A program made the translations under genes and the position numbers. Under the pieces are notes generated by a model, which ran no database searches, was not told the origin of the DNA, and was given only the letters and a program-made list of their open reading frames with translations. DNA of 64,000 nucleotides, taken from contig JAUYRX010000024.1 in assembly GCA_030696635.1 (NCBI GenBank), positions 41,401 through 105,400 of the forward strand. The letters are read 5' to 3'. This DNA comes from Candidatus Melainabacteria bacterium (GTDB lineage: Bacteria > Cyanobacteriota > Vampirovibrionia > Obscuribacterales > Obscuribacteraceae). Shown here one piece after another: positions 10,144 through 32,782 of this stretch. Positions within the stretch are counted from its first letter, which is position 1; every line of letters starts with the position of its first letter.

Positions 10144-10177
10144 AAAAAAAAGTCTCTCCGAAAAACACTGGAGAGAC
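10144..10177 (-). terminator. Rho-independent terminator downstream of the PP2C gene
   Basis: GTCTCTCC (10152-10159) / GGAGAGAC (10170-10177). On the minus strand it is followed by T8 (10144-10151). Confidence 0.75.
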
Positions 10178-10196
10178 AATGAGAAACCTACAATTT

Positions 10197-11465: not shown

Positions 11466-11498
11466 TGATTCCTGAAAAGAATAAAACAGCCAAGTGAC

Positions 11499-11800: not shown

Positions 11801-11818
11801 GTTGCATCCTAAAGTGAT

Positions 11819-12172
11819 ATGGAGACAATATTCGAAGCATTAGAGACGGACAGTATTGAAATTCCAAAACTGACGAAAGAAGCAGAAGAGGGCAAAGGTT
11901 GCTTGATTCGAGAAAAGATTCGAGAAATGCCATTTGAAGAGAGCTTGCAGACTCTTAAAGCTATTCAAAAACAAAATGAAAACAATCGAGATCTCAACTC
12001 CTCTCTTCCAAGCCTCTCCATGGATATTGAAGCCTGGCGGGACACCAGTGTCTATGCGAAACTGAACCTAAAAGATCACTGGTGGTCACCGCCACAAACA
12101 ATTACAACTGACGGAATATCCGTCGAAACTACTTCAGCGCAACGCTCTCAAAGTTGTACTGACCGGCATTAG
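11819..12172 (+). CDS. Hypothetical 117-aa protein
   Basis: ORF with protein-like, acidic and polar composition. No SD and no recognised motif. Confidence 0.4.
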   Translation: METIFEALETDSIEIPKLTKEAEEGKGCLIREKIREMPFEESLQTLKAIQKQNENNRDLNSSLPSLSMDIEAWRDTSVYAKLNLKDHWWSPPQTITTDGISVETTSAQRSQSCTDRH

Positions 12173-12188
12173 AGCGCCAATTAGTTGA

Positions 12189-17500: not shown

Positions 17501-20500
17501 GCGTCCTCCTTAAAGGCTGACTCTGACTCTCTCTTAATGTCGTCAAAAGTAGAAAAGTTCTCTGTCAATCCCTGCATGTTTTGAATGAGCTGCTGTATTC
17601 CAAGTATTACTTCAGCTGGAGCTTCAAATTTGACACTGCGACAGTAGGCCATGTACTTCTTAGACTGTTCGTAGACTTGAGCAAGGGGCATGCCTAAAAT
17701 TAGCTGATCAACAACAATATGATTGCAGCAATAGCCGGCAAAAGTTATATCGCCACTTTTAGAACATGTCTCAAAGCAAGAATAGAGATAGTCTAAATCG
17801 GTCCTAAGGTGGTTGACCCAATAATTTATGGTATCACCAACAATAAACTGAATACGTGCCTTGTAAGCATCGAGGCTGCGTTTCTCAACTAGATTACTAG
17901 CTAGCTGACCGAAGCGATAAGCTTGATCATATTTACCAAAAACTGGCCCTAGACCCATACCCAAGAAGCCATAGCCCATGGCTGAAGCATCACAGTTACC
18001 ATATTGCAAACTTAGAGTCACCATGTGACAAGCACAAAGAAGAAATAGGTTTTGGTCTGAACACAGAGCAGCAGCAAACAATGCTTGCAATATATCTAGA
18101 GCAGAGCGAATTTCTTCATCAGTCATCAATGGCAAGTCAAGTAAATCTTCAATCTCGCGGCCATCCATTAACCGCCACAAGTGCTCATACTGTTCTAAGA
18201 CTTGAGTACGTGAAGGGTGAGCAACCATCTCAATGCCAAATAAACTAAGACCATCAATACCACAAGAAACGGCTCGCACTAAATTAGTTTTGCCAGTATA
18301 GAGTTCAACACCCATGCGGAAAATTTTTGCTTTTTCTAGCTTGGTTTTACTATGTGTGAGTAAATCAGTAAACTGTTGCACTGACTGGTCAAAATTACTG
18401 CACATCCAGTTACACTCAGCTCGTTCAAAATGCAAATCGAAAGAAAGCTGGTAATCACTGTGCCAAGATTCTTGATTAAGTAAGGCGATACCTTCTTCGA
18501 GAAACTGAATGGCCGAATTATAGGCTGTGTTTGCTTTGGCTTTTGTACCAGCCATAAGATTCAGGGCAGACAGGCGCAGCTTCTCGCTGTGCTCAACAAT
18601 TAGGTCTTTGCCTAAATTGAGATGATCGACAATATCAAAAACTCTTGCCTCAACAACGGAATCAGGCCAATTGAGCAAAAGCAGTCGGCCGATACGCAAG
18701 TGCTCCAAACTTCGTTGCGCTTCCGCAATGAGCGAATAGGCAGCCTGCTGTACACGGTCATGGAGAAATTTATAACTTCCGGTCTGACACAATACTAGCC
18801 CCTGCTCAATCGAGGGCTTGAGGGCCACCAGTAGATCTTGCTCAGAACACTGACACAAAATAGCTAAGGTCTCTAGTTCACCATTGTTACCCAAACAAGC
18901 AGCAATTTTTAGTATGTCTCTTGTTTCAAGTGGCAGCCTTAGTAATTTAGCTAAGAGTAAATCGACAATATTGTCCGCATACTCTTGGGCTTCAACCCGG
19001 TCCAAATCCCACTTCCAAACATGACTAGTTTGACTAAACTGCAATAGTTTCTCGAGATAAAGCATCTTCAAAAACTGAATAATGAAAAATGGGTTGCCTT
19101 GAGTTTTTTCATACACTAAGTTTGATAGAGAAGCTGCTTCTTCTTCAGTGCACTGCAAAGAATCAGCAACAAAAGCCCTAGTAATCGCAACAGAGAGAGA
19201 CTGCAGCATAATCTTCTCTACAGTGATGTCGGCGGACTGCAACTCATTGACGACCTCAGTCAATAAGTGGTCTGAGCCTACTTCATTTTCTCTAAAGGCA
19301 CCAATTATCAACAAATAAGTATTCTCGCCTTCGGCAATGAGATTCTTTATTAAACGCAAACTGGCAGCATCAGCCCACTGAAGATCGTCAAGAAAAAGTA
19401 CCAAGGGATGCTCAGACCTAGCAAAAACACCAACAAATTTGCGAAAAGTCAGGTCAAAACGTAGCTGCTCATCGGCCGCTGGCAAAATCGCCACAGGGGG
19501 CTGTGGCCCAATCAGTAAAGCTAGCTCAGGAATGACATTAACAATGACAGCGCCATTGGCACCTAATGCACTCTCAAGCTCTTGCTTCCAGAACTGCACA
19601 ACGTCTTCTGGCTTGGTCAAAAGGAAAAGAATAAACTCTTTGAAAGCTTGGGTGGTGGTTGAGAAAGGAACATTGGCACGAAACTGATCGAACTTACCAG
19701 TAAGGAAAAACCCTTGTTCTTGAATTAATGGTTTATATAGCTCGCGCACCAAAGTCGACTTACCAATACCAGAGTAACCAGAAACAAGCAAAAGCTCAGC
19801 CGCTCCTTGCTCACTAACGCGATTAAAAGCCGCTACTAGTGCCTTAACTTCATGCTCACGACCATAAAGCCGAGTAGGTATAATTAGACCGTGAGGACTA
19901 TCGTCTAAACCCAATTCAAAGCTGCCGATGGGAGCAGTTAATTCATAGCCCTGGCGCAAACGCAAAAGATCTTGAGCTAAACCATAAGCACTCTGATAAC
20001 GATCTTCTGGCTTCTTTGTTAAGAGCTTCAATACTACAGCCGAAAGCAAATCAGGCACGGCCTTATTTAGTTGATGAGGGGGCAGTGGAGAACAAGATAA
20101 ATGAGCATGCACTAGCTCTAAAGGGTCATCAAAGACAAAAGGCGGCTGACCAGTGAGCATCTCGTAAAAGATGGCACCAAGAGAATAGAGATCGCTCAAA
20201 TGTTCAACTGGTTGCTGCATGCGCCCAGTCTGCTCCGGTGAGTGATAAGCCATTCCCTCCAAGGACGGAGCGGCAACAGAGTCAGCCTGATTTGGGTTTA
20301 TATTTGAATCTGTTTTTAGGCTTGAATTTGGGCCGGAGACAATCGCCGCACCAAAATCAACAATGGTGACAGCCGTTGGTCGACTAGTGTGATTGAGAAC
20401 AATGTTGGCAGGACAAAGGTCTAGGTGAATCAAACCAGACTTATGAATAGATTCAACACTCTCAGCTAAAGCAATTGCCAATTCAAAGAAGAGTGAAAGT

Positions 20501-20832
20501 TCAAGCGTTCCTTGTTTAAGAAACTGTTCTAGATTGACAGGGCCAGCATCCTCTGCAATCAAAGCGAGCTTATTGCCAACTCGGTCAAGGGCAAGCATAT
20601 GAATTGAACCGTTCAAATTAAGTGATTTCAGTAGTTCGAATTCGCGCTCTAAAGCAGCAATACCTGAAGCAACAGGGTTAGAGTCGAGTAGAGCCTTGAC
20701 CACTACTTTCTTATTGTCAAGCTTTCGCCAACCGCGAAAGACCTCGTGGCGAGCCCCTCGATAAATTATCTGTAGATCTAGATAGCCATTTTGCCGGGGA
20801 GCATCATTGGATAGAGCCAAATTCATGAGCAT
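14554..20832 (-). CDS. Multidomain signalling protein: kinase-like domain, AAA/STAND ATPase, helical repeats, GAF, HisKA-HATPase, REC and Hpt (HstK-like multi-kinase)
   Basis: Kinase-like: [19 protein letters not shown] (Asp codon 20419-20421), VDFGAA, SPEQ. Walker [10 protein letters not shown] and Walker [16 protein letters not shown]: [21 protein letters not shown]-box SHEIRTPMN (His codon 16177-16179). [27 protein letters not shown]: [19 protein letters not shown] (Asp 15268-15270)..KPV. Hpt: [11 protein letters not shown] (His 14728-14730). Start set to ATG 20832 (MLMNLALS); the ORF is open upstream to 21006. Confidence 0.9.
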
Positions 20833-21202
20833 AGCCTGCGAGCAGTAGATCGTGGACGCACGACAAAATAATAAAGGGTCACCTTGGATATCGCTAACTG
20901 CGAGCAGATTATAGCGCGGAAATCGACACCTTTGAGTGTCGCCCCAGAACAAGCCTCGAGGATACCAACTTTTGCTGAAAAAAAGTTTCCATGGAAACCA
21001 AATCAAAACCGAAAAGAGGTAACTAGAACCGCTACCTCAATTACGGAATAGTACTATGCAATATAATATCTTAAAGATCAAGAAATAATGACGCATTGGG
21101 GTGCTCCACTTTTTAGAATTTAAATCAATAAAATGCCACCGTCCCTGGTAGCGAATACTTGATTGACAACCACTCTTAGTTGTCCGTGACTTAAATCAGA
21201 GC

Positions 21203-21559
21203 TTAGCGAAGAATCAGCGAAAAAATAACACCAAAGACACAGGTAATGAAGGCCATTTTGATGCCAAGTCGCACATGAGTCACCCTAGAACCACTGAGGA
21301 AGAGTGAGAAAATGATGAAGCCAATGAAGCCACTGCCGAACATCTGTGTGACCGATGATCCACTTTCAGTAATGCGGCCTAACACAGAAATACCAAGGGC
21401 AAGAACAATCGGCAGACCAAAAATGAATAGCCGAGACTGAGCAGCCCAACTCTCGAAGACGGTGCGGCGGGATGTGAATGTTCCAGCCCAGTCGCAAGGG
21501 AGAATTCTGCCCAGGCCAAAAATACTGCCGAAAAACAATACCAGTAAAAGAGCGTCCAT
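21203..21559 (-). CDS. Small 4-TM membrane protein
   Basis: 118-aa ORF with four hydrophobic segments. It is the last gene of the co-directional cassette. Confidence 0.5.
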   Translation of the reverse strand: MDALLLVLFFGSIFGLGRILPCDWAGTFTSRRTVFESWAAQSRLFIFGLPIVLALGISVLGRITESGSSVTQMFGSGFIGFIIFSLFLSGSRVTHVRLGIKMAFITCVFGVIFSLILR

Positions 21560-21614
21560 AATTGAAACCCTAGAAGTTAAAAGGAAAGACTAATAAGAAA
21601 AAGCGAAAGCAGCT

Positions 21615-22961
21615 CTACTGAGCCGCAATCGACCAGGTCACTCTTAGTCCGGTGGGTGCAGTAAAAGTGTACGTCAGCTCAACCCCTCTCAGGCCGTGGT
21701 CAATCACTTTGTCTACGAGCTTCAAGAGGTCAGGGTCATGGTCCACTAGCCCATCCAAGTTGACTGCTACCCATTCATTCACTGGTAGCTCATCATAATG
21801 CTGTCGCAACCAAATACGACAAGGAAAGTCTTCTTCCTTGCACTTATCGCCACTTTCATCAACCGACTGAACAGCAAAGTTAGAGCCTTGGGTACGAGCG
21901 TAAAACTCAGGCACAAAACCTTGGGCCTCTGCCTCTTCAAAATATGGGGTGAGGCAGAAGCGATAGTCTTCACCTCGGCGAAAAGGTGCAATCATTGCCC
22001 TTTTCTCAGAGGGCAGAAGCGCGGCATCTTCTCCCTTAAGCTCAGCCAATAACAAGACATCGCTCGCCACTAGACCCAATTCAAACTTAGCGTTCAAGGC
22101 AGCAACAATAGCGTCTTGCACGGGCTTATAGCGCGAGTAGAAGTAATTGGGACCAATTGTTTCTGCCAGAGCCAGAGCTTGTAAAAGGCGCTCACAGTCT
22201 TTAAACCATTTACTGCCATAAAACGTCGGCAGCTCTTCACGAGTAAAGATGAATCCACCCAAACGCAGACGAAAAACACCGTATGGCTTGCTAAACGAAA
22301 TTACTACGGCAGCAATATTGGGATGAGATACATCAAAAACATGCTCGCCAGTCAAGCCAACATAGGCGAGGTCTAATATGACCTGATGCCCAGCATCCAG
22401 CAGACCTTTTATCAAATGGCAAGGCAATATATTGCCTTGACGAGCAGAAGGGTTACTTATGAACCAATAGCCGGGCTCTATCAACTCAGGGGCTTGGCTT
22501 ACCGCGTCAAAATCATGCTCAATCAAGCTCATGCCTATATTCTTAGCCTGAGCGCCATAGCCCTCATACTCGCCCCTAAGCACATGAATTGCAGCAACAC
22601 CCTGAGAGCGCAAGCGCACTAGCAGATGAAATATCCCCTCGGAGCTGCCATGACCGGGGTACTTGAAAGCAAAGTGCTCGAGACCTGGTACGGTCCGAGA
22701 GTAAGCTTGAACCACCCGGTCAATGATGGGCTGATGAATCATGTCTAAATCAAGCTTGCCCTCAACTGTAGCGGTAACTTCTAGGGGCGGCGTAACCAAG
22801 TTAGAAAGAATCTGACCGGCCTCGCTGGCCTCGGTGGACACGCGAAACAGATCAGGATGGAGGAAGGGAGCAACGCGCTTCAAAACCGCTCTTGTATCGC
22901 TAAATAGATAGCTATAAACTGCCTTCATTGGCGTGAAGGCAATTACCTCAAACTTTCTCAT
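21615..22961 (-). CDS. PLP-dependent aminotransferase class I/II-fold enzyme with a ~85-aa C-terminal extension
   Basis: FISNPSARQGN (NPxNPTG-like), ILDLAYVGL (DxAY), SFSKPYGVFRLRLGG (SxSK Schiff-base Lys block). GGAG SD. The start is 12 nt after the radical SAM stop. C-terminal WLRQHYDELPVNEWVAVNLDGLVDHDPDLLKLVDKV recalls DUF5678-type small domains, which is a weak call. Confidence 0.7.
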   Translation of the reverse strand: MRKFEVIAFTPMKAVYSYLFSDTRAVLKRVAPFLHPDLFRVSTEASEAGQILSNLVTPPLEVTATVEGKLDLDMIHQPIIDRVVQAYSRTVPGLEHFAFKYPGHGSSEGIFHLLVRLRSQGVAAIHVLRGEYEGYGAQAKNIGMSLIEHDFDAVSQAPELIEPGYWFISNPSARQGNILPCHLIKGLLDAGHQVILDLAYVGLTGEHVFDVSHPNIAAVVISFSKPYGVFRLRLGGFIFTREELPTFYGSKWFKDCERLLQALALAETIGPNYFYSRYKPVQDAIVAALNAKFELGLVASDVLLLAELKGEDAALLPSEKRAMIAPFRRGEDYRFCLTPYFEEAEAQGFVPEFYARTQGSNFAVQSVDESGDKCKEEDFPCRIWLRQHYDELPVNEWVAVNLDGLVDHDPDLLKLVDKVIDHGLRGVELTYTFTAPTGLRVTWSIAAQ

Positions 22962-22973
22962 GGTCGCTCCGGT

Positions 22974-23894
22974 TTATTGATTTGATTGATTCTGTTGGGC
23001 CTGGGCAAAGGCATCTAGCGTCACACCTTCTTTCTGCCAATCATCACTGACCCGGCCATCAGGCAAAAAGATCAGCTGCCGGCCGACATCTTCATTTTCA
23101 TCGGCCTTAGTCAGCGAGTTGGTTAAGCAGACATTCTGGCCACCAACGTTATAGACACTGCCACCCCAGGGCAGACGCTCTATTAAAGTGCCGGCAGTCT
23201 CAAGGTATGCTTGAATTTCAGCTTTAGCAGTATCGGGTAAATAGTTAGCGGCAACGAAACTAGTAATTTCATCGTCACGACTAGAGTCAGGCTTGTTAAC
23301 CGGACGAATCGTGAGCTGCTCCACTCTATTGCGGCGAGCAAAATCCATCATTTTTTGCAACTCTGTGGAGCTGTCAATTTGTCCGCGCGACATCACTACA
23401 GCTAAGCGCACGGCATAGCCGAAACTATGCAAGTGGGCTATCAACGCAGGCAAGTCAATGTATGCCTGACGATGGGGCAGGTAAGTCTGCCTATTGCGCT
23501 CAGCATCATAATGCACAACCGAAATAGCAATCAATTTCAAGCCATACTCACGCCACTGACGCAGGTGCTGGCTCGTCACAATTTTACGATCGGCGATGGG
23601 AATGCCGTTCGTTTGCAATTCCACCGACTTAAAGTCAAAGGTGCGCTGAATTTTTAAGTACTGCAAAACTTGCTCGGGCCAGAGAGTAGGCTCACCTTTT
23701 GAAGTGAGCAACAAGCTATCGCATTGGTGGGCCTTAGCAAAAGCACAGACCTTAGCAAAAGCATTCAGGTCTGGCGCTTGCGCCTTAGCGGTGACACCGT
23801 TCTCAGGAGTCATGCCGGCCACACAGAAAGGGCAGCGAGCATTGCAAGCCAGGCCACCAACAATAGGGGTCAAAAGTTTGAAGCGTTTTGTCAT
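22974..23894 (-). CDS. Radical SAM enzyme (no SPASM/twitch extension evident)
   Basis: GGLACNARCPFCVAG (CxxxCxxC), SKGEPTLWPEQ (GGEP-like), ELQTNGIPI, and a C-terminal LIFLPDGRV. Confidence 0.85.
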   Translation of the reverse strand: MTKRFKLLTPIVGGLACNARCPFCVAGMTPENGVTAKAQAPDLNAFAKVCAFAKAHQCDSLLLTSKGEPTLWPEQVLQYLKIQRTFDFKSVELQTNGIPIADRKIVTSQHLRQWREYGLKLIAISVVHYDAERNRQTYLPHRQAYIDLPALIAHLHSFGYAVRLAVVMSRGQIDSSTELQKMMDFARRNRVEQLTIRPVNKPDSSRDDEITSFVAANYLPDTAKAEIQAYLETAGTLIERLPWGGSVYNVGGQNVCLTNSLTKADENEDVGRQLIFLPDGRVSDDWQKEGVTLDAFAQAQQNQSNQ

Positions 23895-23949
23895 GTATAT
23901 GTCTCAAAGTAATTGAAAACGACTGGTAGGAAAACTGATCGATTGTCGA

Positions 23950-24669
23950 CTAGAGGCTAAAGCGCTTTAACTTTGCTCTGTTTTCCCAGCGCCAGCAAAG
24001 ATAGCTGAGAGCATTTCGTGAAGACTTTGCCTGTACCAACTCAGCTTCGAAAGCGCGTTTGTCTTTGACGAATTGGCGAGTGCGCACATGCTGACTGACT
24101 GAACTCTCACTCAAATCGAAGGTATCAAAGCGATCCTCTCTACCATCGGCTAGGCGGTAGGCAATGCCTTCTTCAACCACTCGCACCAGTTGATCTAAAG
24201 CTTCTGCCGCTGCTACAGCACCACTATAGCCATTGCCAGCTCCAGCAGACATAAGCCGGTCATCGAGGCAATGCTTATATCCAGTGGGGGCACGCTCATC
24301 AAGAAACAAATTCAGAGAGTGCGTCTCTTCACCAGTGGACCTAACGTTAGGTCTTCTTTTGGGGTCTTTTGTACGAGCATGAATATGCAATAGACCTTCA
24401 CCATAGCTGTAGTAGCTACTGTGGTCGTTGGTTATGCTGCCAAATACCTGAGTAAATGCCGCCATAATCAACAAACAGTCTTCCGGTGCTTTGGCATAGA
24501 CTTTGAACAAACCGGCTAACAAAAGAATATTTCTATCGAGAAAAGCCTGAAAGAAATTGGCAAACGCCACCCGCTCGTATTCAGAGAGAACTTTTGTTTC
24601 AGCATAATGGCTGACCACAGAAGGAAGAAATTGCTCGATCTCTGCTTTAGTAACTACGGTATTTTTCAT
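23950..24669 (-). CDS. Hypothetical 239-aa soluble protein
   Basis: AGAGG SD before ATG 24669. Protein-like composition with no motif recognised. Confidence 0.55.
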   Translation of the reverse strand: MKNTVVTKAEIEQFLPSVVSHYAETKVLSEYERVAFANFFQAFLDRNILLLAGLFKVYAKAPEDCLLIMAAFTQVFGSITNDHSSYYSYGEGLLHIHARTKDPKRRPNVRSTGEETHSLNLFLDERAPTGYKHCLDDRLMSAGAGNGYSGAVAAAEALDQLVRVVEEGIAYRLADGREDRFDTFDLSESSVSQHVRTRQFVKDKRAFEAELVQAKSSRNALSYLCWRWENRAKLKRFSL

Positions 24670-24831
24670 GATTGTGCCTCTTGTTTTGAGTAATCACTAA
24701 AAGATTGCGCTCATACCAGATCAGCCAAGTGACTAGTGAAGAGCGCAAAATTGTAGTAATTTTGAAGGAATAGAGCGGGCAACCAGCCAGTTGGCCGATT
24801 GCCTCGCCATTTAAACGGTTACAAGCTGAGA

Positions 24832-26745
24832 CTAAGCCCCAAATACCCGGGCAATCTGAGCAGTGACAACTTGCCAGGTGCGAGCGATGGCAGCCAAAAC
24901 AGGCTGCAAAACAACTAGCAAGAAGCGAAACTGCCGAGCGACACTGGCCCAAAGCGCCTTGTAGACAGTCCACAAAGCTTCGAAGGCCTGATTGAAAACT
25001 GGAGCCAGAGTAGGGGTAATGGCTGTGAACAATTTAGAGAATTGCAGGTACAACAACGGTGCAAATACTCCACCTACCAGTCCAGCCGCGCTCAAACCCA
25101 GCAACGCCGCAGCAGTTAAGCTGCCACTCAATTCATTAACATAGTAACCAACGGTGGCTAAGGTGACTAAACCACCTACAGAGGCCAAAGTAGTGGCGCT
25201 ATAGTATGAAAACAAACGACCCAAAAGAACAAAGCCATTGATTGAGACGAAGGCAATAATTATTGCATCGACGTAGAAGTTGCTAGTCAATTTGGCCGAC
25301 ACCACAGGCAGTGCTTGCAGCAGAGCAATCACCAGAATCACCAGGTTGAGCACATGGCCAAAGAGCTTGGCAAAATCAGATCTGTCGTTGAAAGCCTCTT
25401 TGCGTTTTTCTGCCAACACCGCAAATGCAGCCACAATTTTGCTTGACAGTCTACCATGCAACCTCTCTAAAGCATAGCCGACAGAGCTTGAAAGGGGACG
25501 AGTAATTGCCCGAACGACAATGTAAAAGATGGGATAAATCACCAGCCCAGTGCTAAGCAAAGTTGCTACCAACAGGCCAAAGTTAAGGGCAGCAGAATTT
25601 GTCAGTGCGGCATGGTAAGTGCCATAAGAGGCGACCAAAATGGTGGCGAGAGCCATTTCACGGGTGGCTTGCGAATGGCCAAAGTGTTTTTGGAAACCTT
25701 CTGTGTAGCTATAAACCAGAGAGACTACAGCAATCAACCATGCCAACCAAAGTGCCAGACCAGTAGCAATGCTTAAGCTATAGAGAACCCAGGCAAAGGC
25801 AAATGCCAAGCCAATATTGAGTAAATGCTGGTAAAAGCGTTGGTAGTCTTTGTCTTCTTCATCGCCATAAGAAGAATTAAGTAACTCGCTCCAATAGTGC
25901 AATACTCTCTTCATAAAACCGCCCTGCAAGCCAACGACAAGCGCTGGCACCAGGTAGGTAATAGCGAACAAACTAGAAGCGGCGAAAGTAGCAACTTTCA
26001 CCACTTCTGATTGAGCAGCGACAAAAGGCACATACTGAACCAGAGCCCAAGAGCCTAACAAGCCATAGGCAACAATAGACTGATAGGCTTTGCTGTCGAA
26101 TAAAGGGCTGACAAGACTGACTAATGCCAGAGCCAGGATAAAACCTGCGACTGCAGCAAAGGCTTGCAAACCGACAAAGCTAATTCCCAGGGTCAAAACC
26201 CAAGCATAGGTTAGATAGCCATAGTATGAAACCGCGGCAAAGAGGGCAATATAGAGTACTGTTTCAATAAAGCGAATGCCTTTAGAACGGCCACCATATT
26301 GATTTTGCAGTTGACTCCACAGTGCCATTGCTCCTGGAGCCCGCTGTACCATGGCGACAATCTGCTCTAGCGCTGGTAGCAAAGCGTTTTTCCAAAGCTT
26401 TTCATAGGAGCGCCAAAGCTTTTCCCACAAATCCCAGACATGACGCAAGACAAAGTAGTACAAGCTTGACCAGACATGGGTGTAGGTAAGGGTTGTTACC
26501 ACCAAGAAAATCAGTAACCAGGTGGCACTGCCTAATCCATAGCTAAATGCTAGCCAATCAGCTGTCTGCCAGGCAGCCAGGACGGCAAGAACGGCACCAA
26601 TCAATGCCACCGGTATCGTCCTTGTCCAAGAGCCAGTGCTATAGGCGCGTTTACATAGCCACTCTCCACTAATTTTTAGGGTGACTGGAATGAAGAATAT
26701 GATGTTGAGGATGAACTGAAAAACGCTCGTTTTTGGTGTTTCCAT
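24832..26745 (-). CDS. Large polytopic membrane protein (~637 aa, roughly 14-16 TM)
   Basis: Continuous ORF. Trp-rich amphipathic segments: VWDLWEKLWRSYEKLWKN and FEALWTVYKALWASVARQF. Start set to ATG 26745 (METPKTS) to avoid a 50-nt overlap with the upstream gene. No family recognised. Confidence 0.65.
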   Translation of the reverse strand: METPKTSVFQFILNIIFFIPVTLKISGEWLCKRAYSTGSWTRTIPVALIGAVLAVLAAWQTADWLAFSYGLGSATWLLIFLVVTTLTYTHVWSSLYYFVLRHVWDLWEKLWRSYEKLWKNALLPALEQIVAMVQRAPGAMALWSQLQNQYGGRSKGIRFIETVLYIALFAAVSYYGYLTYAWVLTLGISFVGLQAFAAVAGFILALALVSLVSPLFDSKAYQSIVAYGLLGSWALVQYVPFVAAQSEVVKVATFAASSLFAITYLVPALVVGLQGGFMKRVLHYWSELLNSSYGDEEDKDYQRFYQHLLNIGLAFAFAWVLYSLSIATGLALWLAWLIAVVSLVYSYTEGFQKHFGHSQATREMALATILVASYGTYHAALTNSAALNFGLLVATLLSTGLVIYPIFYIVVRAITRPLSSSVGYALERLHGRLSSKIVAAFAVLAEKRKEAFNDRSDFAKLFGHVLNLVILVIALLQALPVVSAKLTSNFYVDAIIIAFVSINGFVLLGRLFSYYSATTLASVGGLVTLATVGYYVNELSGSLTAAALLGLSAAGLVGGVFAPLLYLQFSKLFTAITPTLAPVFNQAFEALWTVYKALWASVARQFRFLLVVLQPVLAAIARTWQVVTAQIARVFGA

Positions 26746-26791
26746 TGGAATACCTGTAATTTGTTTGTTGTTGGTGGTGTTGTTGCTGAAC

Positions 26792-27418
26792 TTAGTAACA
26801 GGCACGATAGCTATCGCGTCGCTCGGCCTGATATTCAGCAATTAGGGTTCTTTGCTCGGCAGTCTGCATATACTCCGGCACGGCGAAAGCCGCTGTCACA
26901 AGCGTATTGCGGGCCTGGTTCATGCGCCTTTGTTGTTCTTGGAACTCTCTTCGGCGCACCACTTCATCTCGATCTGAATAACTACTAATAGAACTACGCG
27001 CATCAGCCACCAGACGAGCCAGTAATGGCTCAACATCACTCGCTGTCAGGGCTTTTAGAGCAGCCATTGAAACGAAACTACTAAATCCATGCAGTTTCAT
27101 CGCCTCAATTTCCTCTTTCTTTGAAGCGATACCACAGGCAGCACGACTTCGATCTGCAGCACCATTGAGAATCTGGTAGAGATTACTCTCGCGCCCGCAG
27201 TAGGTATGAACATCATAAGTTGGACAAATAATTAGATCGAAATAGTCAAAGGAGCCCGAGGTATAGCAATCTTCTCCAGGGGGCAAAAACGACATACCTA
27301 GATTTTCATGGGCCTCATTAACCGAAATAGCCAGGGTAACTTTATGGCCAGAAGCTATCAAAACTTGCGATAGTCGCACTAATAGCTGATTATTTCTATT
27401 GATCAAAAGAATTTTCAT
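26792..27418 (-). CDS. Hypothetical protein with a receiver/flavodoxin-like N-terminus and a helical Q/R/E-rich tail
   Basis: MKILLINRNNQLLVRLSQVLIASGHKVTLAISVNEAHENL ... FDLIICP resembles a REC fold, but the acidic pair is replaced by NRN. C-terminal EFQEQQRRMNQARN. Confidence 0.5.
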   Translation of the reverse strand: MKILLINRNNQLLVRLSQVLIASGHKVTLAISVNEAHENLGMSFLPPGEDCYTSGSFDYFDLIICPTYDVHTYCGRESNLYQILNGAADRSRAACGIASKKEEIEAMKLHGFSSFVSMAALKALTASDVEPLLARLVADARSSISSYSDRDEVVRRREFQEQQRRMNQARNTLVTAAFAVPEYMQTAEQRTLIAEYQAERRDSYRACY

Positions 27419-27484
27419 AGGGCTTGTACTCCGTTGTTTTTACTTGAAAAAGCCTGCCCTAACTTCGTTTAGGGCAGACAGAAT

Positions 27485-28213
27485 TTAGTGCGCGTACTTG
27501 CTTGAGTCGAGGCCTAGACCATCAGCCACCAGTTGCAGGCGAGTGTGGTCTATATTTCGGCCTCTTCTGCCGCCAACAATTGACACTGCCAAACGCATGG
27601 CGATATCAGTCTGATAGCTATCGGCAGACAGTTGTTTGACTCTATTTAAGGTACTTTCCCAGGCATACATGCAAACTGGATGTTCAATATCACCAAGATA
27701 AGTATTGAAATAACCAACCAGAGCATCAGTAGGTAGATGATCAAAAGCTCTGGCATGCTTGATACGCTCTACAATTTCTTCTTTCTGCTCATCACTGAGC
27801 AGTTCCGTGCGCTTGCCAGAAGCCAAAAGCAGGGCAGTTAAACCCATAACAGATTTCTGAAAGCTCACAGCCGTGATCGCCGAAGCACATTTAGTCAACT
27901 CATCATGAGTGGTATAAATAGCCTGCATCACCCATTTTTTGAGATAGTACAGCGCCACCACAAAGTAGGCAAAAGTGATAAGCAATGCCAAAACTTCAAC
28001 CAAGCCGCCCATACCCAAGAAAGGCATTGCGACTATGACTCCAGAAATAATGAAGATAAAAACAGCAATGGCAATTGCCTTACTTTCGCTGGAAAATCCA
28101 AGCTCAGGATGGCTACCGAAAAATTTGTAGATATTGTGGCTGACCATGATCATGCCTAAGATCACTGGCATCAGCAAAACGAAGGGAAGCAGGGCGGTAA
28201 TGGGCATCAGCAT
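27485..28213 (-). CDS. Membrane-anchored protein with a TerB-like C-terminal domain
   Basis: Three or four N-terminal TM helices. The C-terminal ~120 aa (LLLASGKRTELLSDEQKEEIVERI ... RLQLVADGLGLDSSKY) recall TerB/DjlA-N type helical domains. AAGAGGA SD. Confidence 0.55.
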   Translation of the reverse strand: MLMPITALLPFVLLMPVILGMIMVSHNIYKFFGSHPELGFSSESKAIAIAVFIFIISGVIVAMPFLGMGGLVEVLALLITFAYFVVALYYLKKWVMQAIYTTHDELTKCASAITAVSFQKSVMGLTALLLASGKRTELLSDEQKEEIVERIKHARAFDHLPTDALVGYFNTYLGDIEHPVCMYAWESTLNRVKQLSADSYQTDIAMRLAVSIVGGRRGRNIDHTRLQLVADGLGLDSSKYAH

Positions 28214-28258
28214 ATGTGAGTCCTCTTTGCCTTTTGGGCAATAGTTGGCGAATGAAAT

Positions 28259-28281
28259 GGAGGTTCTTTGTAAGAACCTCC
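28259..28281 (-). terminator. Perfect 10-bp hairpin after the two small genes (attenuator or partial terminator)
   Basis: GGAGGTTCTT (28259-28268) / AAGAACCTCC (28272-28281) with a 3-nt loop. The minus-strand tail ATTTCATT is only weakly U-rich. Confidence 0.4.
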
Positions 28282-28324
28282 ACTATTGAAAAGATCGTGT
28301 CTTATATATCTGGCGAGGTAAGCT

Positions 28325-28573
28325 TTAGCGCTTGCCGGTACTCTTGGTGACGGTAATCAAATAGCGAATGGTTGCTACTGGTTCCGCCGCAAGTGGAGTT
28401 AGCTGTACCATGGCTGGAGCAATACCATACTCTTCAGCGATGGTTTCACCAAGGGCAAGTAATTGCGAATATTGTTCAGCAGCAGCCGACACTGAAACGA
28501 CAGCATACTTACCATACTGTGCTTCAAGACCACTGCGGTGAATCAATGTAGGTTGTGATTGAGATTCAGACAT
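28325..28573 (-). CDS. Small 82-aa protein
   Basis: AGGAG SD before ATG 28573. Sequence MSESQSQPTLIHRSGLEAQYGKYAVVSVSAAAEQY... with no family recognised. Confidence 0.55.
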   Translation of the reverse strand: MSESQSQPTLIHRSGLEAQYGKYAVVSVSAAAEQYSQLLALGETIAEEYGIAPAMVQLTPLAAEPVATIRYLITVTKSTGKR

Positions 28574-28595
28574 AGTTCATTACTCCTAAACTTGA

Positions 28596-28832
28596 TTAAC
28601 CAAAGGAGAGCCAAAGCGCTTCGAGACGAGCTCTAACCAACTGAGCCTGCTCTTCGATTTCGGCAAAAAGTGGGGCGAAAGCTTGATCGACAGCGGCGTT
28701 AAAACCACTAGTCTGCATGTAGTCATGCACATCAAAATCTGTATAGTCGAAACCTTCTGGCAAGACTGCCGGAAAATTTTGCCATGCAGAGGAGGGGGAA
28801 GAAGCTGAAACAGCTTCAGTTGTTGCTGCCAT
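28596..28832 (-). CDS. Small acidic 78-aa protein
   Basis: Start set to ATG 28832 (MAATTEAV) with GGAGAA SD; the ORF-track start at 28847 is TTG. Sequence DYTDFDVHDYMQTSGFNAAVDQAFAPLFAEIEEQAQLV. Confidence 0.5.
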   Translation of the reverse strand: MAATTEAVSASSPSSAWQNFPAVLPEGFDYTDFDVHDYMQTSGFNAAVDQAFAPLFAEIEEQAQLVRARLEALWLSFG

Positions 28833-29394
28833 TGGTATTCTCCGCAATGGTTGTTTGTGTTAGTCAATTGGCGCTAACAGAAATGTGCGAACAGAAGCAT
28901 GCGAAACACCTACTACCAAAGGCATTGAGTGATTGCTTGCTAGATGTGCGCGGGACTTATGGAAGAAACCTTCTTGCTGGATAGCGGAGTTGAAAATTAG
29001 ATGGAATAGATTCACTAATACTGCAAGACCGCCTACTCACTTGGCAAGGGCGCTATGGCCTTTATGAATTGCAATTACGGAAGGCCGCCTATCTTAGATT
29101 AAATTGACTCATCAACCAAAGCACAAAGCGGCCTGTTTTCTGCTCGTCTGAAAGGGCTTATGCGCACCAATTAGCGCAGCGCAATCAACGGAAATCACAG
29201 ACAAAAGACCACTTACCAACCGAGCCAGAGAGACACTAACAACCGAGCGACATAGGCTAGTGGGTGGAAAAAAATATGTAATCAGATCCACTTGCCAAGG
29301 GCTAATTGATCAAGCCAATATCAAGATCTCTATCACACTTCTTTTTCTTGGCATTACAACACTTCTTATCTACACCCGCCACTCCGCAGCATTT

Positions 29395-29417
29395 TTCATT
29401 AGCGCGTAGCTAATGAA
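29395..29417. promoter_or_regulatory. 9-bp inverted repeat about 60 nt upstream of ATG 29477 (candidate operator)
   Basis: TTCATTAGC gcgta GCTAATGAA. Confidence 0.3.
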
Positions 29418-29476
29418 GATATTGCCGCACTACCAACTTTCACTATTCAAAAACTTTGACCCCCTCAGGAGGTTTT

Positions 29477-30163
29477 ATGAGCATCCACCGCATTGAATAT
29501 TTAGACCATGACCGCATCGTAGCTTTTGACGATGAACTAGACCCGGCTTTTGCCCTCTATGTTCTATGCCGCAGCTACCTGGCCTATGGCGGAAAAGTTA
29601 CTAGTTATAGCGAAACGAGCCTAACTGCCGAAGTCACTTTCCTGCGCCCCGAACAAATGGTTTTAACAGCTGACCGTCATTACATGAAAGCCTTGTATCG
29701 AGCGGCCCAAGCCATAGAAAACATCAATCAACCGGAGCAGCACATTGAAGACAGTCCAAACGGGCTCATCTTTGCCCTAACCGGTCTAGCTCAAGCCCAT
29801 AGCGGAGAGAAAACCGCCATGATTGCCCTACTAGCCGGCGCCAACATCAACAACCCGGCTGAGGTAAAAGCAATGACCGAGCTTGGTCTAGAGCTAGCCC
29901 TCACAGTCTTTATGATTGACGCTCACAGCGGAGATGAAGCCAAATTGCCATTACTCGACACCATAGCACTGGTGAAAATCATCTCTGATTTTCTCAGTCT
30001 AGAAGTGCCAAATTCGCAACAACAAGGTCGCACAACGATTCTGGACGCAACCAACTACGCCTTGAGAGCGCAAATACCGCTCTTATCGTTTCTCACCGAA
30101 TGGGTTGAAGGCATGGCACGGGGTCTCGCTCTCAGTGACATTGTCAGACACAAGGCGGCCTAG
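29477..30163 (+). CDS. Hypothetical 228-aa protein
   Basis: Start set to ATG 29477 (MSIHRIEYL) with AGGAGG SD 6 nt upstream. No motif recognised. Confidence 0.6.
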   Translation: MSIHRIEYLDHDRIVAFDDELDPAFALYVLCRSYLAYGGKVTSYSETSLTAEVTFLRPEQMVLTADRHYMKALYRAAQAIENINQPEQHIEDSPNGLIFALTGLAQAHSGEKTAMIALLAGANINNPAEVKAMTELGLELALTVFMIDAHSGDEAKLPLLDTIALVKIISDFLSLEVPNSQQQGRTTILDATNYALRAQIPLLSFLTEWVEGMARGLALSDIVRHKAA

Positions 30164-30241
30164 ACACGTTATCGCTACAACGCTGTAAGCGATAGCAATT
30201 TTTAAGCGCTGCACTGAAGCGGCACTAAATGGAAATGCACA

Positions 30242-32287
30242 ATGACTAAAACGAGACATGTACAAAAATGGTTTATGGCCGGGAGCGACAAGGAAGAGCA
30301 CCAGGTAGAACACACAGCCCCATGGTGGAGAGTCGTTTGCCTCACCGGGGTAGATTACTTCTCAACCCTCTGTTATCAACCCACCATTGCTTTTGCCGCA
30401 GCTGGAGCACTAGCCCCGCTGGCAACGATTGTTTTGGCCCTGGTTACTCTGTTTGCCGCACTGCCTGTGTACTTCACCGTAGCTAACGAGAGCCCACACG
30501 GGCAGGGCAGTATCAGCATGCTAGAAAGTCGCTTACCAGGCTGGTCAGCAAAACTCTGCGTCTTGGTTCTACTGGGTTTTGCCGCCTGCGCCTACCTGAT
30601 CACAATCACCCTCTCCGCCTCTGATGGAGCTGCCCATTTCGTCGAAAATCACGAAATGCACAAGGCAATAACAGTGCAAGGATATGTCATTACTGCCGTG
30701 GTAGCCGCACTAGCATACCTGATAGCTGACCGGTCTCGGCAACTAATTGTCATCGGCTGCCTCGCTCTATTGGCCTACGCTGCCCTGGATCAATTCGCCC
30801 AGAATCGCTTAGCTGTAGCTTTGATAATGATCCTGCTCTTAGGGGCTTTGTTTCTCAAAGGCCTACGCGAAGTAATTGGCATTGCTGTTCTACTTGTAGT
30901 GGCTTTCTTGTCACTCAGTGCCATCGTCGTAGCGGCAGGCCTCTATCAAGTATACCTTCACCCTGAGCTCATAAGCGGCTGGTGGCAGCGTCTCCTGGGA
31001 GACTATAACTACTCCTGGTCAGCCATACTCTTCGCTTGTCTCACGGTCTTCCCCTTACTGGCTCTAGGCCTTTCAGGGTTTGAAACAGGAGTACAAGTTA
31101 TACCCCTCGTCAGAGGCGATCAAAACGACAATCACCACCACCCCCTGGGAAGAATTCGCAACGCCAAAAAGCTTCTGGCTGCCGCAGCAATAATCATGAG
31201 CATCTTTCTGATTTTAAGCAGCGTGGCCACGACCTTGCTAATTCCGGCCAAAGAAATGATGCCTGGGGGTAGCGCAGAAGGTCGCGCCCTTAGCGTCTTA
31301 GGTCACAACCTGCTAGGCCACGGTTTCGGCACTATATTCGATACCGTTACCATTGCCATTCTCTGGTTTGCTGGTGCTTCTGCCATGACCGGACTGATTA
31401 ATCTGGTTACTCACTATCTGCCTAGATATGGCATGGTGCCTTCATGGGCCAGAGCTTCCCGCCCGGTGATTATCGTCTTTACTGCGATTGCTGTGCTTGT
31501 CACCGTCATTTTTAAGGCCGATGTTATGGCCCAAGGCGGCGCCTACGCAACGGGAGTACTGGTGCTTATCACCTCTGCCTCGATCTCAGCAACCTGGTGT
31601 TCATGGAAAAAGCACAAATGGCAAGCCCTAGCATTTGGCTTAACAGCTCTGGTTTTTCTCTATACCACCTGCGTCAACATGATTGGTCATCCAGATGGTC
31701 CCAAAATCGCCGCCTTCTTCATTCTCATGGTGCTCGCCACATCGCTGATATCTAGAGTAATGCGTGTTCTGGAGCTACGCGTCAAAGCTGTAGAGCTCGA
31801 TGAAAATGCCAAGCTGTTCTTGACAGAAGCCAAAGCACAAAATCAAAAAGGCATCATCCACATCGTCGCTCATAAGTTTGGTGGCACAGCTTACACAATC
31901 AGGGGAAATGAAGTACGAGACAGACACAACATCGGAGACCACGACCAGCTCGTCTTCTTGGAGGTCACCATCGAAGACGCCTCAGAATTTGTGGACGAAG
32001 TACTTGAAGTGGAGGGTACTATTCACAAAGGTAACCACGGTGATCACCGCATTCTGCGCTGCAAAAGCCCATCCGTAGCCAACGCCATTGCTGCAATCTT
32101 GTTGCATATTCAAAGCGAATGTGACACACGCGCGGCTGCTCATATTGGCTGGTCTGAAGACGGCCCCTTCCTCACAGCATTTACCTTTTTGCTCTTTGGT
32201 GATGGTGAAACTGGGGTGCTAGTGCGCAAAATTCTAGAAACGGCAGAACCGAATAATAAACATCGACCTCTGGTGTTAATTGGTTAA
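30242..32287 (+). CDS. APC-superfamily-like polytopic permease with a ~170-aa cytoplasmic C-terminal domain
   Basis: About 12 TM segments followed by a soluble tail (IIHIVAHKFGGTAYTIRGNEVRD...). The family assignment rests on architecture only. Confidence 0.55.
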   Translation: MTKTRHVQKWFMAGSDKEEHQVEHTAPWWRVVCLTGVDYFSTLCYQPTIAFAAAGALAPLATIVLALVTLFAALPVYFTVANESPHGQGSISMLESRLPGWSAKLCVLVLLGFAACAYLITITLSASDGAAHFVENHEMHKAITVQGYVITAVVAALAYLIADRSRQLIVIGCLALLAYAALDQFAQNRLAVALIMILLLGALFLKGLREVIGIAVLLVVAFLSLSAIVVAAGLYQVYLHPELISGWWQRLLGDYNYSWSAILFACLTVFPLLALGLSGFETGVQVIPLVRGDQNDNHHHPLGRIRNAKKLLAAAAIIMSIFLILSSVATTLLIPAKEMMPGGSAEGRALSVLGHNLLGHGFGTIFDTVTIAILWFAGASAMTGLINLVTHYLPRYGMVPSWARASRPVIIVFTAIAVLVTVIFKADVMAQGGAYATGVLVLITSASISATWCSWKKHKWQALAFGLTALVFLYTTCVNMIGHPDGPKIAAFFILMVLATSLISRVMRVLELRVKAVELDENAKLFLTEAKAQNQKGIIHIVAHKFGGTAYTIRGNEVRDRHNIGDHDQLVFLEVTIEDASEFVDEVLEVEGTIHKGNHGDHRILRCKSPSVANAIAAILLHIQSECDTRAAAHIGWSEDGPFLTAFTFLLFGDGETGVLVRKILETAEPNNKHRPLVLIG

Positions 32288-32386
32288 CAAAAATCTCTCG
32301 CGACCCTCTGAGTGAAAAGCATTCAGAGGGTCTTTTCTTTGGTCCAAAAAACCATTTCTAACAACCTGGAAAACAGGAGATCTAAA

Positions 32387-32782
32387 ATGGACTGCACACA
32401 CAAATGTCCGGCCATCCGTCTTGTGATGTTCCCCAAAGACACAAACCCTTGGGGCAGCATTTTCGGAGGCGTTATTCTCTCTAACATCGACATTGCCGCT
32501 AGCGTTGCCACCCGTGCTGTTACGCAGCACCGCACCGTCACTGTCTGCATGAAAGAAGTAGCTTTCAAACAACCAGTAAAAGTGGGAGACATACTCACTT
32601 TCTGGACCGATGTCGTCAAAATTGGTCGCACCTCGGTCACCATCAGAGTCAAAGTAGAAGCTGAACGTCACGGCGAAACCATAGCCGTAACCGAAGGAGA
32701 AGTAGTTTTCGTATCAGTAGACGATCAAGACCGCCCGATTCCACTCGATGCACCCATTGGCACTCAAGGAGAAGCAATCTAA
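32387..32782 (+). CDS. Acyl-CoA thioesterase, hotdog fold (YciA-like)
   Basis: MFPKDTNPWGSIFGGVILSNIDIAAS ... GRTSVTIRVKV. Start set to ATG 32387 with AGGAG SD. Confidence 0.8.
   Translation: MDCTHKCPAIRLVMFPKDTNPWGSIFGGVILSNIDIAASVATRAVTQHRTVTVCMKEVAFKQPVKVGDILTFWTDVVKIGRTSVTIRVKVEAERHGETIAVTEGEVVFVSVDDQDRPIPLDAPIGTQGEAI

Follow-up and report, generated by a model that had tools for sequence, protein, structure and literature searches.

Nine open reading frames follow one another on the minus strand between positions 21203 and 28847 of the window (the whole 64-kb stretch of DNA analyzed here), and the question they raise is whether they constitute one system. The gene map reproduced the arrangement of the initial annotation, including all eight intergenic gaps to the nucleotide (22, 111, 66, 46, 162, 55, 12, and 55 nt; Table 1). 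SD-like motifs (GGAG, AGGAG, or AGAGGA) are present upstream of g1, g2, and g3, and thus also of the two short genes for which good SDs had been claimed. Purifying selection acts on 9/9 genes (dN/dS 0.05–0.30 versus relatives, at dS ~0.4–1.5); the nine ORFs are real genes.

Table 1. Genes, hairpins, and junction of the minus-strand array (positions in the window).
Feature	Position	Strand	Description
g1	28596..28832	-	78-aa acidic soluble orphan; ORF and SD site
g2	28325..28573	-	82-aa orphan (relatives: 82-114 aa)
Hairpin g2-g3	28259..28281	-	Perfect 10-bp stem, 3-nt loop, GGAGGTTCTT-ACA-AAGAACCTCC; weak T tail
g3	27485..28213	-	242-aa orphan; ~3 N-terminal TM helices, helical C-terminal domain
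Terminator-like hairpin g3-g4	27452..27479	-	11-bp stem, then T run
g4	26792..27418	-	208-aa soluble orphan; beta-alpha N-terminus, charged helical C-terminus
g5	24832..26745	-	637-aa polytopic membrane protein; small uncharacterized family
g6	23950..24669	-	239-aa soluble orphan
g6-g7 junction	23895..23949	-	Polymorphic indel site; blastn and ORF maps
g7	22974..23894	-	306-aa radical SAM enzyme, single CX3CX2C cluster, MoaA/viperin-like fold
g8	21615..22961	-	448-aa fold-type I PLP enzyme, HisC/CobD-like
g9	21203..21559	-	118-aa protein, 4 TM segments; clade-restricted
Two terminator-like hairpins, g9 to giant kinase gene	21016..21152	-	

Only g7 (radical SAM) and g8 (PLP aminotransferase fold) had been assigned to catalytic families, and for both, Pfam profiles and motifs agree with the assignment. 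The other seven genes are indeed orphans, without a family in Pfam, NCBIfam, PADLOC, or PHROGs, and no known pathway or defense system corresponds to the nine-gene combination. The orphans g1–g6 and g9 were seen only where the radical SAM enzyme of the relative is 87–96% identical to g7, or its g6 is at least 69% identical. The products of g1 (11 acidic versus 2 basic residues) and g2 both evolve at a dN/dS of 0.14. Two fold proposals did not hold up: for g3, described as TerB-like, Pfam returned no match (E ≤ 0.1), and AF2, run on the single sequence, gave an all-helical model with a pLDDT of 54.8; g4, described as receiver-like, likewise had no Pfam match, aligned with REC domains at a probability of only 16% over 49 columns (hhalign), and is limited to the clade. 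The 637 codons of g5 are counted from an ATG, and all of its orthologues are called at this length; a longer ORF starting with TTG reaches 26841. Its Trp content is 3.1%, and an exhaustive HMMER search placed it in a family of 49 representative clusters, full length and with identities down to ~21%. A search of 5.8 billion proteins yielded no more than 10 clusters for g6, none of them below 69% identity. Within the clade, g9 is always downstream of the radical SAM/PLP pair. In the relatives L003, L017, and L005, unrelated small proteins with 3–4 TM segments occupy its position. The genes g1–g6 may have an accessory role at the envelope or membrane.

Comparison with relatives argues against the single nine-gene cassette that had been proposed. 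In sister genomes (L010–12, L014–16, and L088–91), 7.7 kb with six co-directional genes (a ubiquitin-like/ThiF E1/ClpB-like block) are located exactly at the g6–g7 junction, and in the deeper relatives L088–L091, two further genes lie between g5 and g6. Because sister genomes hold six genes there, the 55-nt g6–g7 gap of the window is a polymorphic indel site, which interrupts the stretch 24669–21203, previously suggested as a unit of its own. Long and short forms of this junction are interleaved inside the 95–96% group, the junction sequence differs between the window and L001, on the one hand, and L092, on the other, and no remnant of the six-gene block was found anywhere in the 64-kb window. 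In a 96% relative (L009), g1 and g3 are cleanly deleted, and g5 homologues at 36–39% identity are found in unrelated contexts in other lineages, with no other array genes nearby. The radical SAM/PLP pair is the only part of the array that recurs outside this narrow group of Obscuribacterales, where more than 20 distant lineages have it without any of the orphans. Nor is the proximity to the giant kinase gene, to which the array had been linked, conserved; L001, L008, L009, and L092 lack that gene here, and its presence varies among relatives.

It is thus unlikely that the nine genes (or the 17–19-gene array of sister genomes) are one system (a stress module, or one for modification at the membrane, as first suggested), in which the compound made by the pair would be used or exported by the membrane proteins and the small soluble ones. 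Co-directional genes, short gaps, and SD sites agree with such a system, as do purifying selection on all genes, the small TM protein invariably found downstream of the pair (four lineages), and the fact that g2, g3, and g5 are still together in L097 at 53% identity, where their order is g2–g5–g3 and the g2 homologue adjoins that of g5. The nine-gene order is kept across dS ~1 inside the clade, which would also fit a functional array; however, a shared order is what descent by itself predicts in so narrow a clade, whose flanking genes are also the same. Moreover, natural strains do without g1 and g3, without the six-gene block, or without genes of 59 and 151 aa, and both the pair without orphans and the g5 homologues without the pair speak against a single system, as do terminator-like hairpins inside the array. 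Such hairpins are found 3′ of g2, g3, g8, and g9, and those after g2 and g3 are conserved in relatives. The perfect hairpin reported after the 82-aa gene is present; it is possibly a terminator or attenuator, its position is retained in L001 and L092 and partly in L088 and L090, and in L009 it is gone along with g3. Downstream of g3, the stem is conserved and the loops are variable (L001, L092, L088, L090, and L009). Judged by their sequence, the hairpins probably split the array into several transcription units.

The part of the array that is found elsewhere is the pair. The g7 product passes the Pfam Radical_SAM profile (34.7 versus a cut-off of 29.5 bits), its cluster motif is formed by C17/C21/C24, and one further Cys is invariant in the family. 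Its AF2 model (pLDDT 88.8) has MoaA and viperin-like enzymes as top Foldseek matches (TM 0.64–0.70). Few basic residues are invariant in the family, so that a nucleoside triphosphate, the type of substrate used by MoaA and viperin, is less likely. The g8 product passes Aminotran_1_2 (23.7 versus 19.7 bits) and contains the SxSK lysine (K225), along with D197, Y200, N170, and R233; K225 and D197 are invariant. The best PDB matches of the PLP profile are HisC (3.8e-8) and CobD (6.6e-8). A C-terminal extension of ~90 aa (about 21618–21896) is specific to the clade. Outside the clade, 22 adjacent pairs were found in archaea and bacteria, with a distance between the two genes of −58 to +82 nt (according to gene calls made here) and a 4-nt overlap in many of them. 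Protein distances of g7 and g8 are correlated (Mantel r = 0.57; 0/2000 permutations as high); the homologues of g7 and g8 are a co-inherited, often overlapping unit. The pair is distributed over DPANN archaea, CPR bacteria, and other bacteria; on large viral contigs, the radical SAM gene occurs without the PLP gene.

In DPANN, CPR, Obscuribacter, and large viral contigs, homologues of g7 form part of NAD gene clusters, whether the PLP partner is present or not. When NadE, NAPRTase, NadD, NadA, NrtR, and NadR-like genes were counted, at least one was within 10 kb of the radical SAM gene at 52/74 non-redundant cellular loci, and at least two at 40/74; the neighbor identities were confirmed with Pfam and NCBIfam. 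At 38/62 loci, an NAD gene directly flanks the radical SAM gene or the pair. A NadK-like protein is also among the neighbors. NadE, NAPRTase, NadD, or NrtR is nearby on 16 of the 52 IMG/VR viral contigs with a homologue, some of which may be misclassified cellular DNA, and PncA is a recurrent neighbor; GenBank phages contained no homologue. The g7 of the window is a divergent paralogue of this family. There is no NAD gene in the 64-kb window, nor within 10 kb of g7 in its nearest relatives (L003, L005, and L017), and the NAD inference is therefore carried over from paralogues at 44–55% identity. No curated family or publication was found for a radical SAM/PLP pair in an NAD gene context, and none of the papers searched joined radical SAM to NrtR (the single co-mention with Preiss–Handler was unrelated). 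No described NAD pathway is known to include a radical SAM or HisC-like step.

Alternatively, the product of the pair might be a small molecule unrelated to NAD (for example, a cofactor, a lipid head-group, an amino acid, or an amino sugar); the pair would then lie in the NAD clusters of streamlined genomes incidentally, or only because it is regulated together with them. NAD neighbors are missing at six isolated pairs and in the window clade, a small membrane protein lies downstream of the pair, and the phospho-amino substrates of HisC/CobD-like enzymes are diverse. Still, this reading is rather doubtful, since the NAD link recurs independently, in different gene orders, in archaea, several bacterial phyla, and viral contigs, and immediate adjacency at so many loci is hard to explain by chance. 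That the pair is a conflict module, making a viperin-like modified nucleotide for antiviral defense or phage counter-defense in a variable, defense-island-like region, is quite improbable. PADLOC pVip profiles matched weakly (2e-9), the predicted structure resembles viperin-like enzymes by Foldseek, the polymorphic Ubl/E1 block nearby weakly resembles the anti-phage 6A-MBL cap2_3 protein, homologues occur on viral contigs, and NAD is a central currency in phage–host conflict (PMC9503650). However, g7 reaches only 29 against the NCBIfam viperin_w_prok cut-off of 180, MoaA fits the structure equally well or better, the NAD clusters, with the regulator NrtR, are of the housekeeping type in reduced CPR and DPANN genomes, g7 evolves very slowly (dN/dS 0.054), and PADLOC found no known defense partner genes nearby.

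The stretch is therefore probably, if by no means securely, a mosaic of an orphan block and an enzyme module of an NAD-linked family, not one system. The genes of the orphan block (g1–g6) are specific to one lineage within the Obscuribacterales (Melainabacteria); some are individually dispensable in natural strains, and, counting g9 alongside this block, three of the orphans encode membrane proteins. The pair and the small membrane protein g9 would form an autonomous, horizontally mobile module, its contact with the orphan block being an accident of the polymorphic 7.7-kb indel. The g7 enzyme is predicted to make a 5′-deoxyadenosyl radical and to take hydrogen from a small molecule, which could be a ribose phosphate or a nucleotide. 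Its tightly coupled partner g8 might act in that pathway by transamination or decarboxylation of an amino or keto compound that may carry a phosphate. Because g7 homologues sit inside NAD biosynthesis and salvage clusters, pairs of this type may produce or transform a compound that enters pyridine-nucleotide metabolism or alters it, and g7 of the window would be a diverged paralogue working outside an NAD cluster.

Among known systems, MoaA (GTP 3′,8-cyclase) is the best sequence match of g7 in solved structures (1.7e-5) and its best Foldseek match (TM 0.66); both have an N-terminal CX3CX2C and a partial TIM barrel, and several g7 homologues carry the JGI name MoaA. However, g7 scores 37 bits against the TIGR02666 cut-off of 284, identity is 15–17%, the single extra invariant Cys of the family implies that there is no MoaA-type C-terminal auxiliary [4Fe-4S] site, and moa genes are not among the recurrent neighbor clusters. 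Viperin and pVip share with g7 the single cluster, similar size, and structural resemblance (Foldseek TM 0.64–0.71); apart from the score given above, the g7 family differs in having few conserved basic residues for a triphosphate, an NAD biosynthesis rather than a defense context, and a PLP enzyme partner. HisC (histidinol-phosphate aminotransferase) and CobD (L-threonine-O-3-phosphate decarboxylase) are, like g8, fold-type I PLP enzymes with a conserved NPxxxxG-like motif, D-x-x-Y motif, and S-x-S-K lysine. In contrast to them, g8 stays far below the cut-offs (TIGR01141, 18.6 versus 276; TIGR01140, 20.7 versus 290) and has an obligate radical SAM gene neighbor and the clade-specific extension, and his and cob genes are missing from the recurrent neighbor clusters of its family. 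A radical SAM and a PLP enzyme act in sequence on one small molecule in deoxy-amino-sugar biosynthesis (DesII/DesI), which may serve as a working analogy only: DesI is a DegT-family enzyme rather than a HisC-like one, and sugar-nucleotide genes are not among the recurrent neighbor clusters of the pair. NrtR-regulated NAD salvage/Preiss–Handler clusters (PncA-PncB-NadD-NadE) embed g7 homologues, with or without g8, whereas g7 of the window lies outside any NAD cluster.

Nine minus-strand ORFs (g1 to g9, numbered from 28832 downward) occupy positions 21203-28832 and are separated by 22, 111, 66, 46, 162, 55, 12 and 55 nt, exactly as described in the initial annotation. SD-like motifs precede g1, g2 and g3, a perfect 10-bp hairpin follows g2, and, as stated there, only two of the nine products could be assigned to catalytic families: g7 to Radical_SAM (Pfam PF04055; 34.7 versus a gathering score of 29.5 bits) and g8 to Aminotran_1_2 (PF00155; 23.7 versus a cut-off of 19.7 bits). 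The other seven are orphans, irrespective of whether PADLOC, PHROGs, NCBIfam or Pfam was consulted, and no protein of the nine gave an above-threshold match in PADLOC, NCBIfam or PHROGs. Nor does the array match a known anti-phage defence system; PADLOC returned weak pVip matches for g7 and a 20-residue ZorA match for g9 only. Because dN/dS was between 0.05 and 0.30 for all nine genes (compared with relatives at dS ~0.4-1.5), the orphans are considered real genes. The start giving a 637-aa g5 was backed by every orthologue call, and an Rfam search of the window detected neither a riboswitch (that for NAD included) nor any other known RNA. The nearest loci are metagenome-assembled Obscuribacterales (Melainabacteria), with 87-96% identity in the radical SAM protein.

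Features of the array, its surroundings and related loci (window coordinates unless a locus, L, is named)
Feature	Coordinates	Strand	Properties
Divergent neighbours	29456-33519		235 aa (no Pfam match); 681 aa (no Pfam match); 4HBT thioesterase; 245 aa (no Pfam match)
ORF-free stretch	28848-29455		~600 nt between g1 and the divergent 235-aa gene
g1	28596-28832	-	acidic, soluble; no family match
g2	28325-28573	-	small, soluble; no family match
Hairpin	28259-28281		perfect, 10 bp; 3′ of g2
g3	27485-28213	-	~3 TM helices and a helical domain
g4	26792-27418	-	beta-alpha N-terminus, charged helical tail
g5	24832-26745	-	polytopic membrane protein, 3.1% Trp; small family only
g6	23950-24669	-	soluble; clade-restricted
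Six-gene block	L011:2374-9977; L088:10833-18562		absent from window at 23895-23949
g7	22974-23894	-	radical SAM enzyme
g8	21615-22961	-	PLP enzyme
g8 C-terminal extension	~21618-21896	-	residues ~356-448, ~90 aa; no Pfam match
g9	21203-21559	-	4 TM segments; clade-restricted
Small TM proteins after the pair	21203-21559; L003:3959-4435; L017:11990-12355; L005:7444-7827		
Giant kinase	14554-21006		2150 aa; Pkinase-AAA_16-GAF-HisKA-HATPase-REC-Hpt
Pkinase-LRR gene	12189-14300		703 aa
g1 and g3 deletions	L009:5990-6480		~first 45 nt of g1 left, fused to the SD site of g2; g3 and the g2-g3 hairpin gone
Viral-contig NAD cluster	L108-L111: ~9400-12800		nicotinamidase, NadE, radical SAM, NAPRTase, NadD

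Two fold assignments proposed for the orphans could not be substantiated. For g3, called TerB-like, no Pfam match was obtained at E<=0.1 (TerB being PF05099), and the all-helical single-sequence AF2 model (pLDDT 54.8) was of too low confidence for a fold search. The supposed receiver-like fold of g4 likewise had no Pfam match (REC being PF00072); when aligned to 13 REC domains with hhalign, a probability of 16% was reached over just 49 columns, with N/R and C at the aligned acidic positions. The family of g5 comprises ~650-aa membrane proteins in 49 representative clusters, whose members at 36-39% identity occupy unrelated neighbourhoods; a homologue at 53% identity lies in the order g2-g5-g3. 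For g6, 10 clusters were found in 5.8 billion proteins, every one at least 69% identical.

The initial annotation had proposed that the nine genes form one cassette. This would be in keeping with their compact, co-directional layout and with a gene order conserved in the clade of close Obscuribacterales relatives; that order, however, is kept along with the flanking genes, as common descent predicts. When six-frame ORFs from the full set of cellular loci (L001-L097) were searched with the nine proteins by phmmer and jackhmmer, g1 to g6 and g9 were confined to the close clade and the radical SAM/PLP pair (g7 and g8) was widespread; beyond close relatives, only g7-g8 recurs in synteny. Within the clade, ten loci (L010-12, L014-16 and L088-91) carry six extra co-directional genes, placed exactly from the stop of g6 to the start of g7. 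Their products are four proteins of ~114-121, 660-683, 303-309 and 386-397 aa without family, followed by a ThiF-type E1 and a ClpB-like AAA+ protein. The first, small protein has a faint ThiS-like match, and the E1 shows weak similarity to the cap2_3 protein of anti-phage 6A-MBL; the block is a candidate module for ubiquitin-like conjugation or for conflict. Forms with and without it are interleaved inside a group of 95-96% identity, and the g6-g7 junction sequence of the window and L001 is unlike that of L092; thus, the 55-nt junction in the window is a site of recurrent indels. The 64-kb window has no remnant of the block. In deeper relatives, g5 and g6 are separated by two small genes (59 and 151 aa). 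In L009, a 96% relative, g1 and g3 are cleanly deleted, so that the stop of g2 now abuts the hairpin between g3 and g4. Both deletions are precise, that of g3 taking the g2-g3 hairpin along, with the g3-g4 terminator hairpin kept. Terminator-like hairpins follow g2, g3 (11-bp stem and T run), g8 and g9, and those of g2 and g3 are conserved in relatives. The nine-gene array is thus a mosaic, and that all nine genes act as one system is considered quite unlikely.

The genes flanking the array vary as well. L014-16 have the giant kinase gene downstream of g9, and L001, L008-L013 and L092 lack it there; a functional link between this gene and the array was rejected because of this variable presence. 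The adjacent Pkinase-LRR gene is absent in L001, L008, L009 and L092, and in L010-11 it is present without the giant kinase. On the other side, the ORF-free stretch corresponds to the position of a gene for an 86-90-aa TM protein in L092, L088, L097 and partly L009, of which tblastn found no trace in the window. The divergent neighbours beyond it are conserved beside the array in relatives, except that the 681-aa gene is absent from L001. The locus thereby shows orphan genes, the candidate ubiquitin-like/E1/ClpB block and giant kinases being gained and lost within one species-level Obscuribacterales group. With the nine-gene "system" dissolved, effort on a false cassette is spared.

What recurs outside the clade is the pair. 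The cysteines C17, C21 and C24 of g7 form a CX3CX2C motif, which in radical SAM enzymes binds the [4Fe-4S] cluster, and were invariant in all 23 family sequences compared. The AF2 model (pLDDT 88.8) has a partial TIM-barrel fold, and its top Foldseek matches were all radical SAM enzymes; a fold search against viral structures (BFVD) gave generic radical SAM matches only. Motif, Pfam score and modelled fold together identify g7 as a member of the radical SAM superfamily. Its family is large (968 matches at E<=1e-5, the best 120 of the 968 each scoring >286 bits) and lies below every curated equivalog cut-off. In g8, the predicted Schiff-base lysine K225 (S-x-S-K) as well as D197, the predicted contact to the pyridine nitrogen, Y200 and R233 were invariant in 22 sequences, and N170 was nearly so. 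Pfam score and these residues identify it as a fold-type I PLP aminotransferase (class I/II). Its C-terminal extension is confined to the Obscuribacterales clade of the window, no other family member having it. In 22 loci outside the clade, the PLP gene immediately follows the radical SAM gene, at distances from -58 to +82 nt by our own gene calls and with a 4-nt overlap in many pairs. Hosts include DPANN archaea, CPR bacteria, Chloroflexota, Acidobacteriota and a Planktothrix MAG. Pairwise distances of the two proteins are correlated (Mantel r=0.57; 0 of 2000 permutations as high). The pair is an ancient, mobile and co-inherited two-enzyme module of uncharacterised families.

Neighbouring genes were clustered over 87 loci, and the cluster representatives were annotated by Pfam and NCBIfam. 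Most recurrent were NAD synthetase NadE (36 loci), a divergent NAD-kinase-like protein (35), the Nudix and winged-helix NAD regulator NrtR (28), NAPRTase (27 in the larger of two clusters, the smaller adding 6), a NadD-like adenylyltransferase (16), a NadR-like protein (15) and NadA (12), besides a nucleoside-deoxyribosyltransferase-like/Nudix protein, ADP-ribosylglycohydrolase, PRPP synthetase and an isochorismatase-type nicotinamidase. The typical order is NAPRTase-NadE-NadE-[radical SAM]-[PLP]-NrtR-NadK-like-NadA. At least one NAD-family gene was present within 10 kb in 52 of 74 non-redundant cellular loci and at least two in 40 of the 74; the radical SAM gene or the pair has one as its immediate neighbour in 38 of 62 loci. 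Across domains, the radical SAM family of g7 thus lies within NAD gene clusters. DPANN NAD clusters (L019, L024, L034, L040, L041, L047, L049 and L076) have two tandem NadE paralogues upstream of the radical SAM gene, and the NAD-kinase-like protein (303 aa) scored 28 bits versus NAD kinase cut-offs of >219; both may have non-canonical roles. The radical SAM enzyme as a replacement for PncA was rejected, as the two co-occur in viral and Obscuribacterales loci. Replacement of NadB by the pair is unsupported, given that NadA is near in 12 loci only and a candidate FAD oxidase stands beside NadA in some.

In IMG/VR, members of the family were recovered from 52 contigs (L098-L149), of which many measure 100-450 kb; since tblastn detected no g7 homologue in GenBank phages, their viral assignment stays putative. 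NadE, NAPRTase, NadD or NrtR lies near the radical SAM gene in 16 of the 52, and the PLP gene was found in none of them. PncA and RNA-repair genes recur nearby, among them RtcB, an RNA-ligase-like gene, a CCA-adding enzyme and a TROVE-like gene.

No NAD genes were found in the 64-kb window itself, which would fit a small-molecule pathway unrelated to NAD. The g7 protein is 44-55% identical to family members inside NAD clusters and shares their invariant residues, and in a neighbor-joining tree the window clade, grouped with three other isolated pairs (L003, L017 and L005), is nested beside NAD-context members (L002 and L006). An NAD-unrelated role of the pair is regarded as rather unlikely. 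The complete chromosome OZ245871.1 of a related genome holds both a window-type pair and a second, NAD-context copy (L045; 48% identity); thus, g7 is probably a paralogue rather than the orthologue of the latter. In all four isolated-pair lineages, a small co-directional 3-4 TM protein follows the pair. As these proteins have no detectable mutual similarity, they are positional analogues only.

A mosaic array containing a radical SAM/PLP module whose family is linked to NAD is the account we favour, with somewhat better than even confidence. The radical SAM enzyme would abstract hydrogen from a small metabolite via the 5′-deoxyadenosyl radical, the PLP enzyme would act on an amino or keto intermediate, possibly phosphorylated, and the product would be related to pyridine-nucleotide metabolism, with the window paralogue retaining related chemistry. 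A more far-reaching and tentative proposal is that the radical SAM family, together with its PLP partner where present, catalyzes an undescribed pyridine-nucleotide step: possibly a new way of making the nicotinate or quinolinate ring used by NAPRTase, NadD and NadE, or alternatively a radical reaction that modifies or repairs NAD or its precursors. CPR bacteria, DPANN archaea, Melainabacteria and large phages would share this conserved step, and the genome of the window would hold a neofunctionalised or relocated second copy. To our knowledge, no described NAD pathway employs radical SAM chemistry. Literature searches found no paper tying a radical SAM enzyme to NrtR or Preiss-Handler clusters, or connecting this family with NAD metabolism or Obscuribacter, and a survey of viral NAD systems makes no mention of such an enzyme. 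The array itself is of modest interest; the worthwhile, testable lead of wider interest is the family and its NAD association. This radical SAM enzyme is strongly conserved but uncharacterised, is in many cases coupled translationally to a HisC/CobD-like PLP enzyme, and lies in gene clusters for NAD biosynthesis and salvage in minimal-metabolism organisms (CPR, DPANN), Melainabacteria and large putative viral contigs. Should the link prove functional, one of the best-studied cofactor pathways would gain a step, a precursor route or a modified dinucleotide, with possible relevance to NAD-centred conflict between phage and host.

Compared with known systems, g8 is closest to HisC and CobD (profile E 3.8e-8 and 6.6e-8, respectively), but it scored 20.7 versus 290 for the CobD equivalog and 18.6 versus 276 for that of HisC (scored on a homologue). 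These scores, and the absence of his or cob genes among the recurrent neighbour clusters, ruled out that it is an equivalog of either. The best structural matches of g7 were MoaA and viperin-like enzymes (TM 0.64-0.70 at 12-17% identity). MoaA has a C-terminal auxiliary [4Fe-4S] site of three conserved cysteines, whereas C256 alone is invariant in g7 beyond the SAM cluster; lacking the auxiliary cluster and scoring far under the cut-off of TIGR02666 (37.2 versus 284), g7 is not MoaA. Viperin and pVip enzymes make ddh-nucleotides from NTPs. The structural likeness would suit a viperin-like conflict module, but g7 reached 29.1 versus a cut-off of 180 for NF038283 and 35 bits for pVip in PADLOC, and we hold this identity of the pair to be very unlikely.
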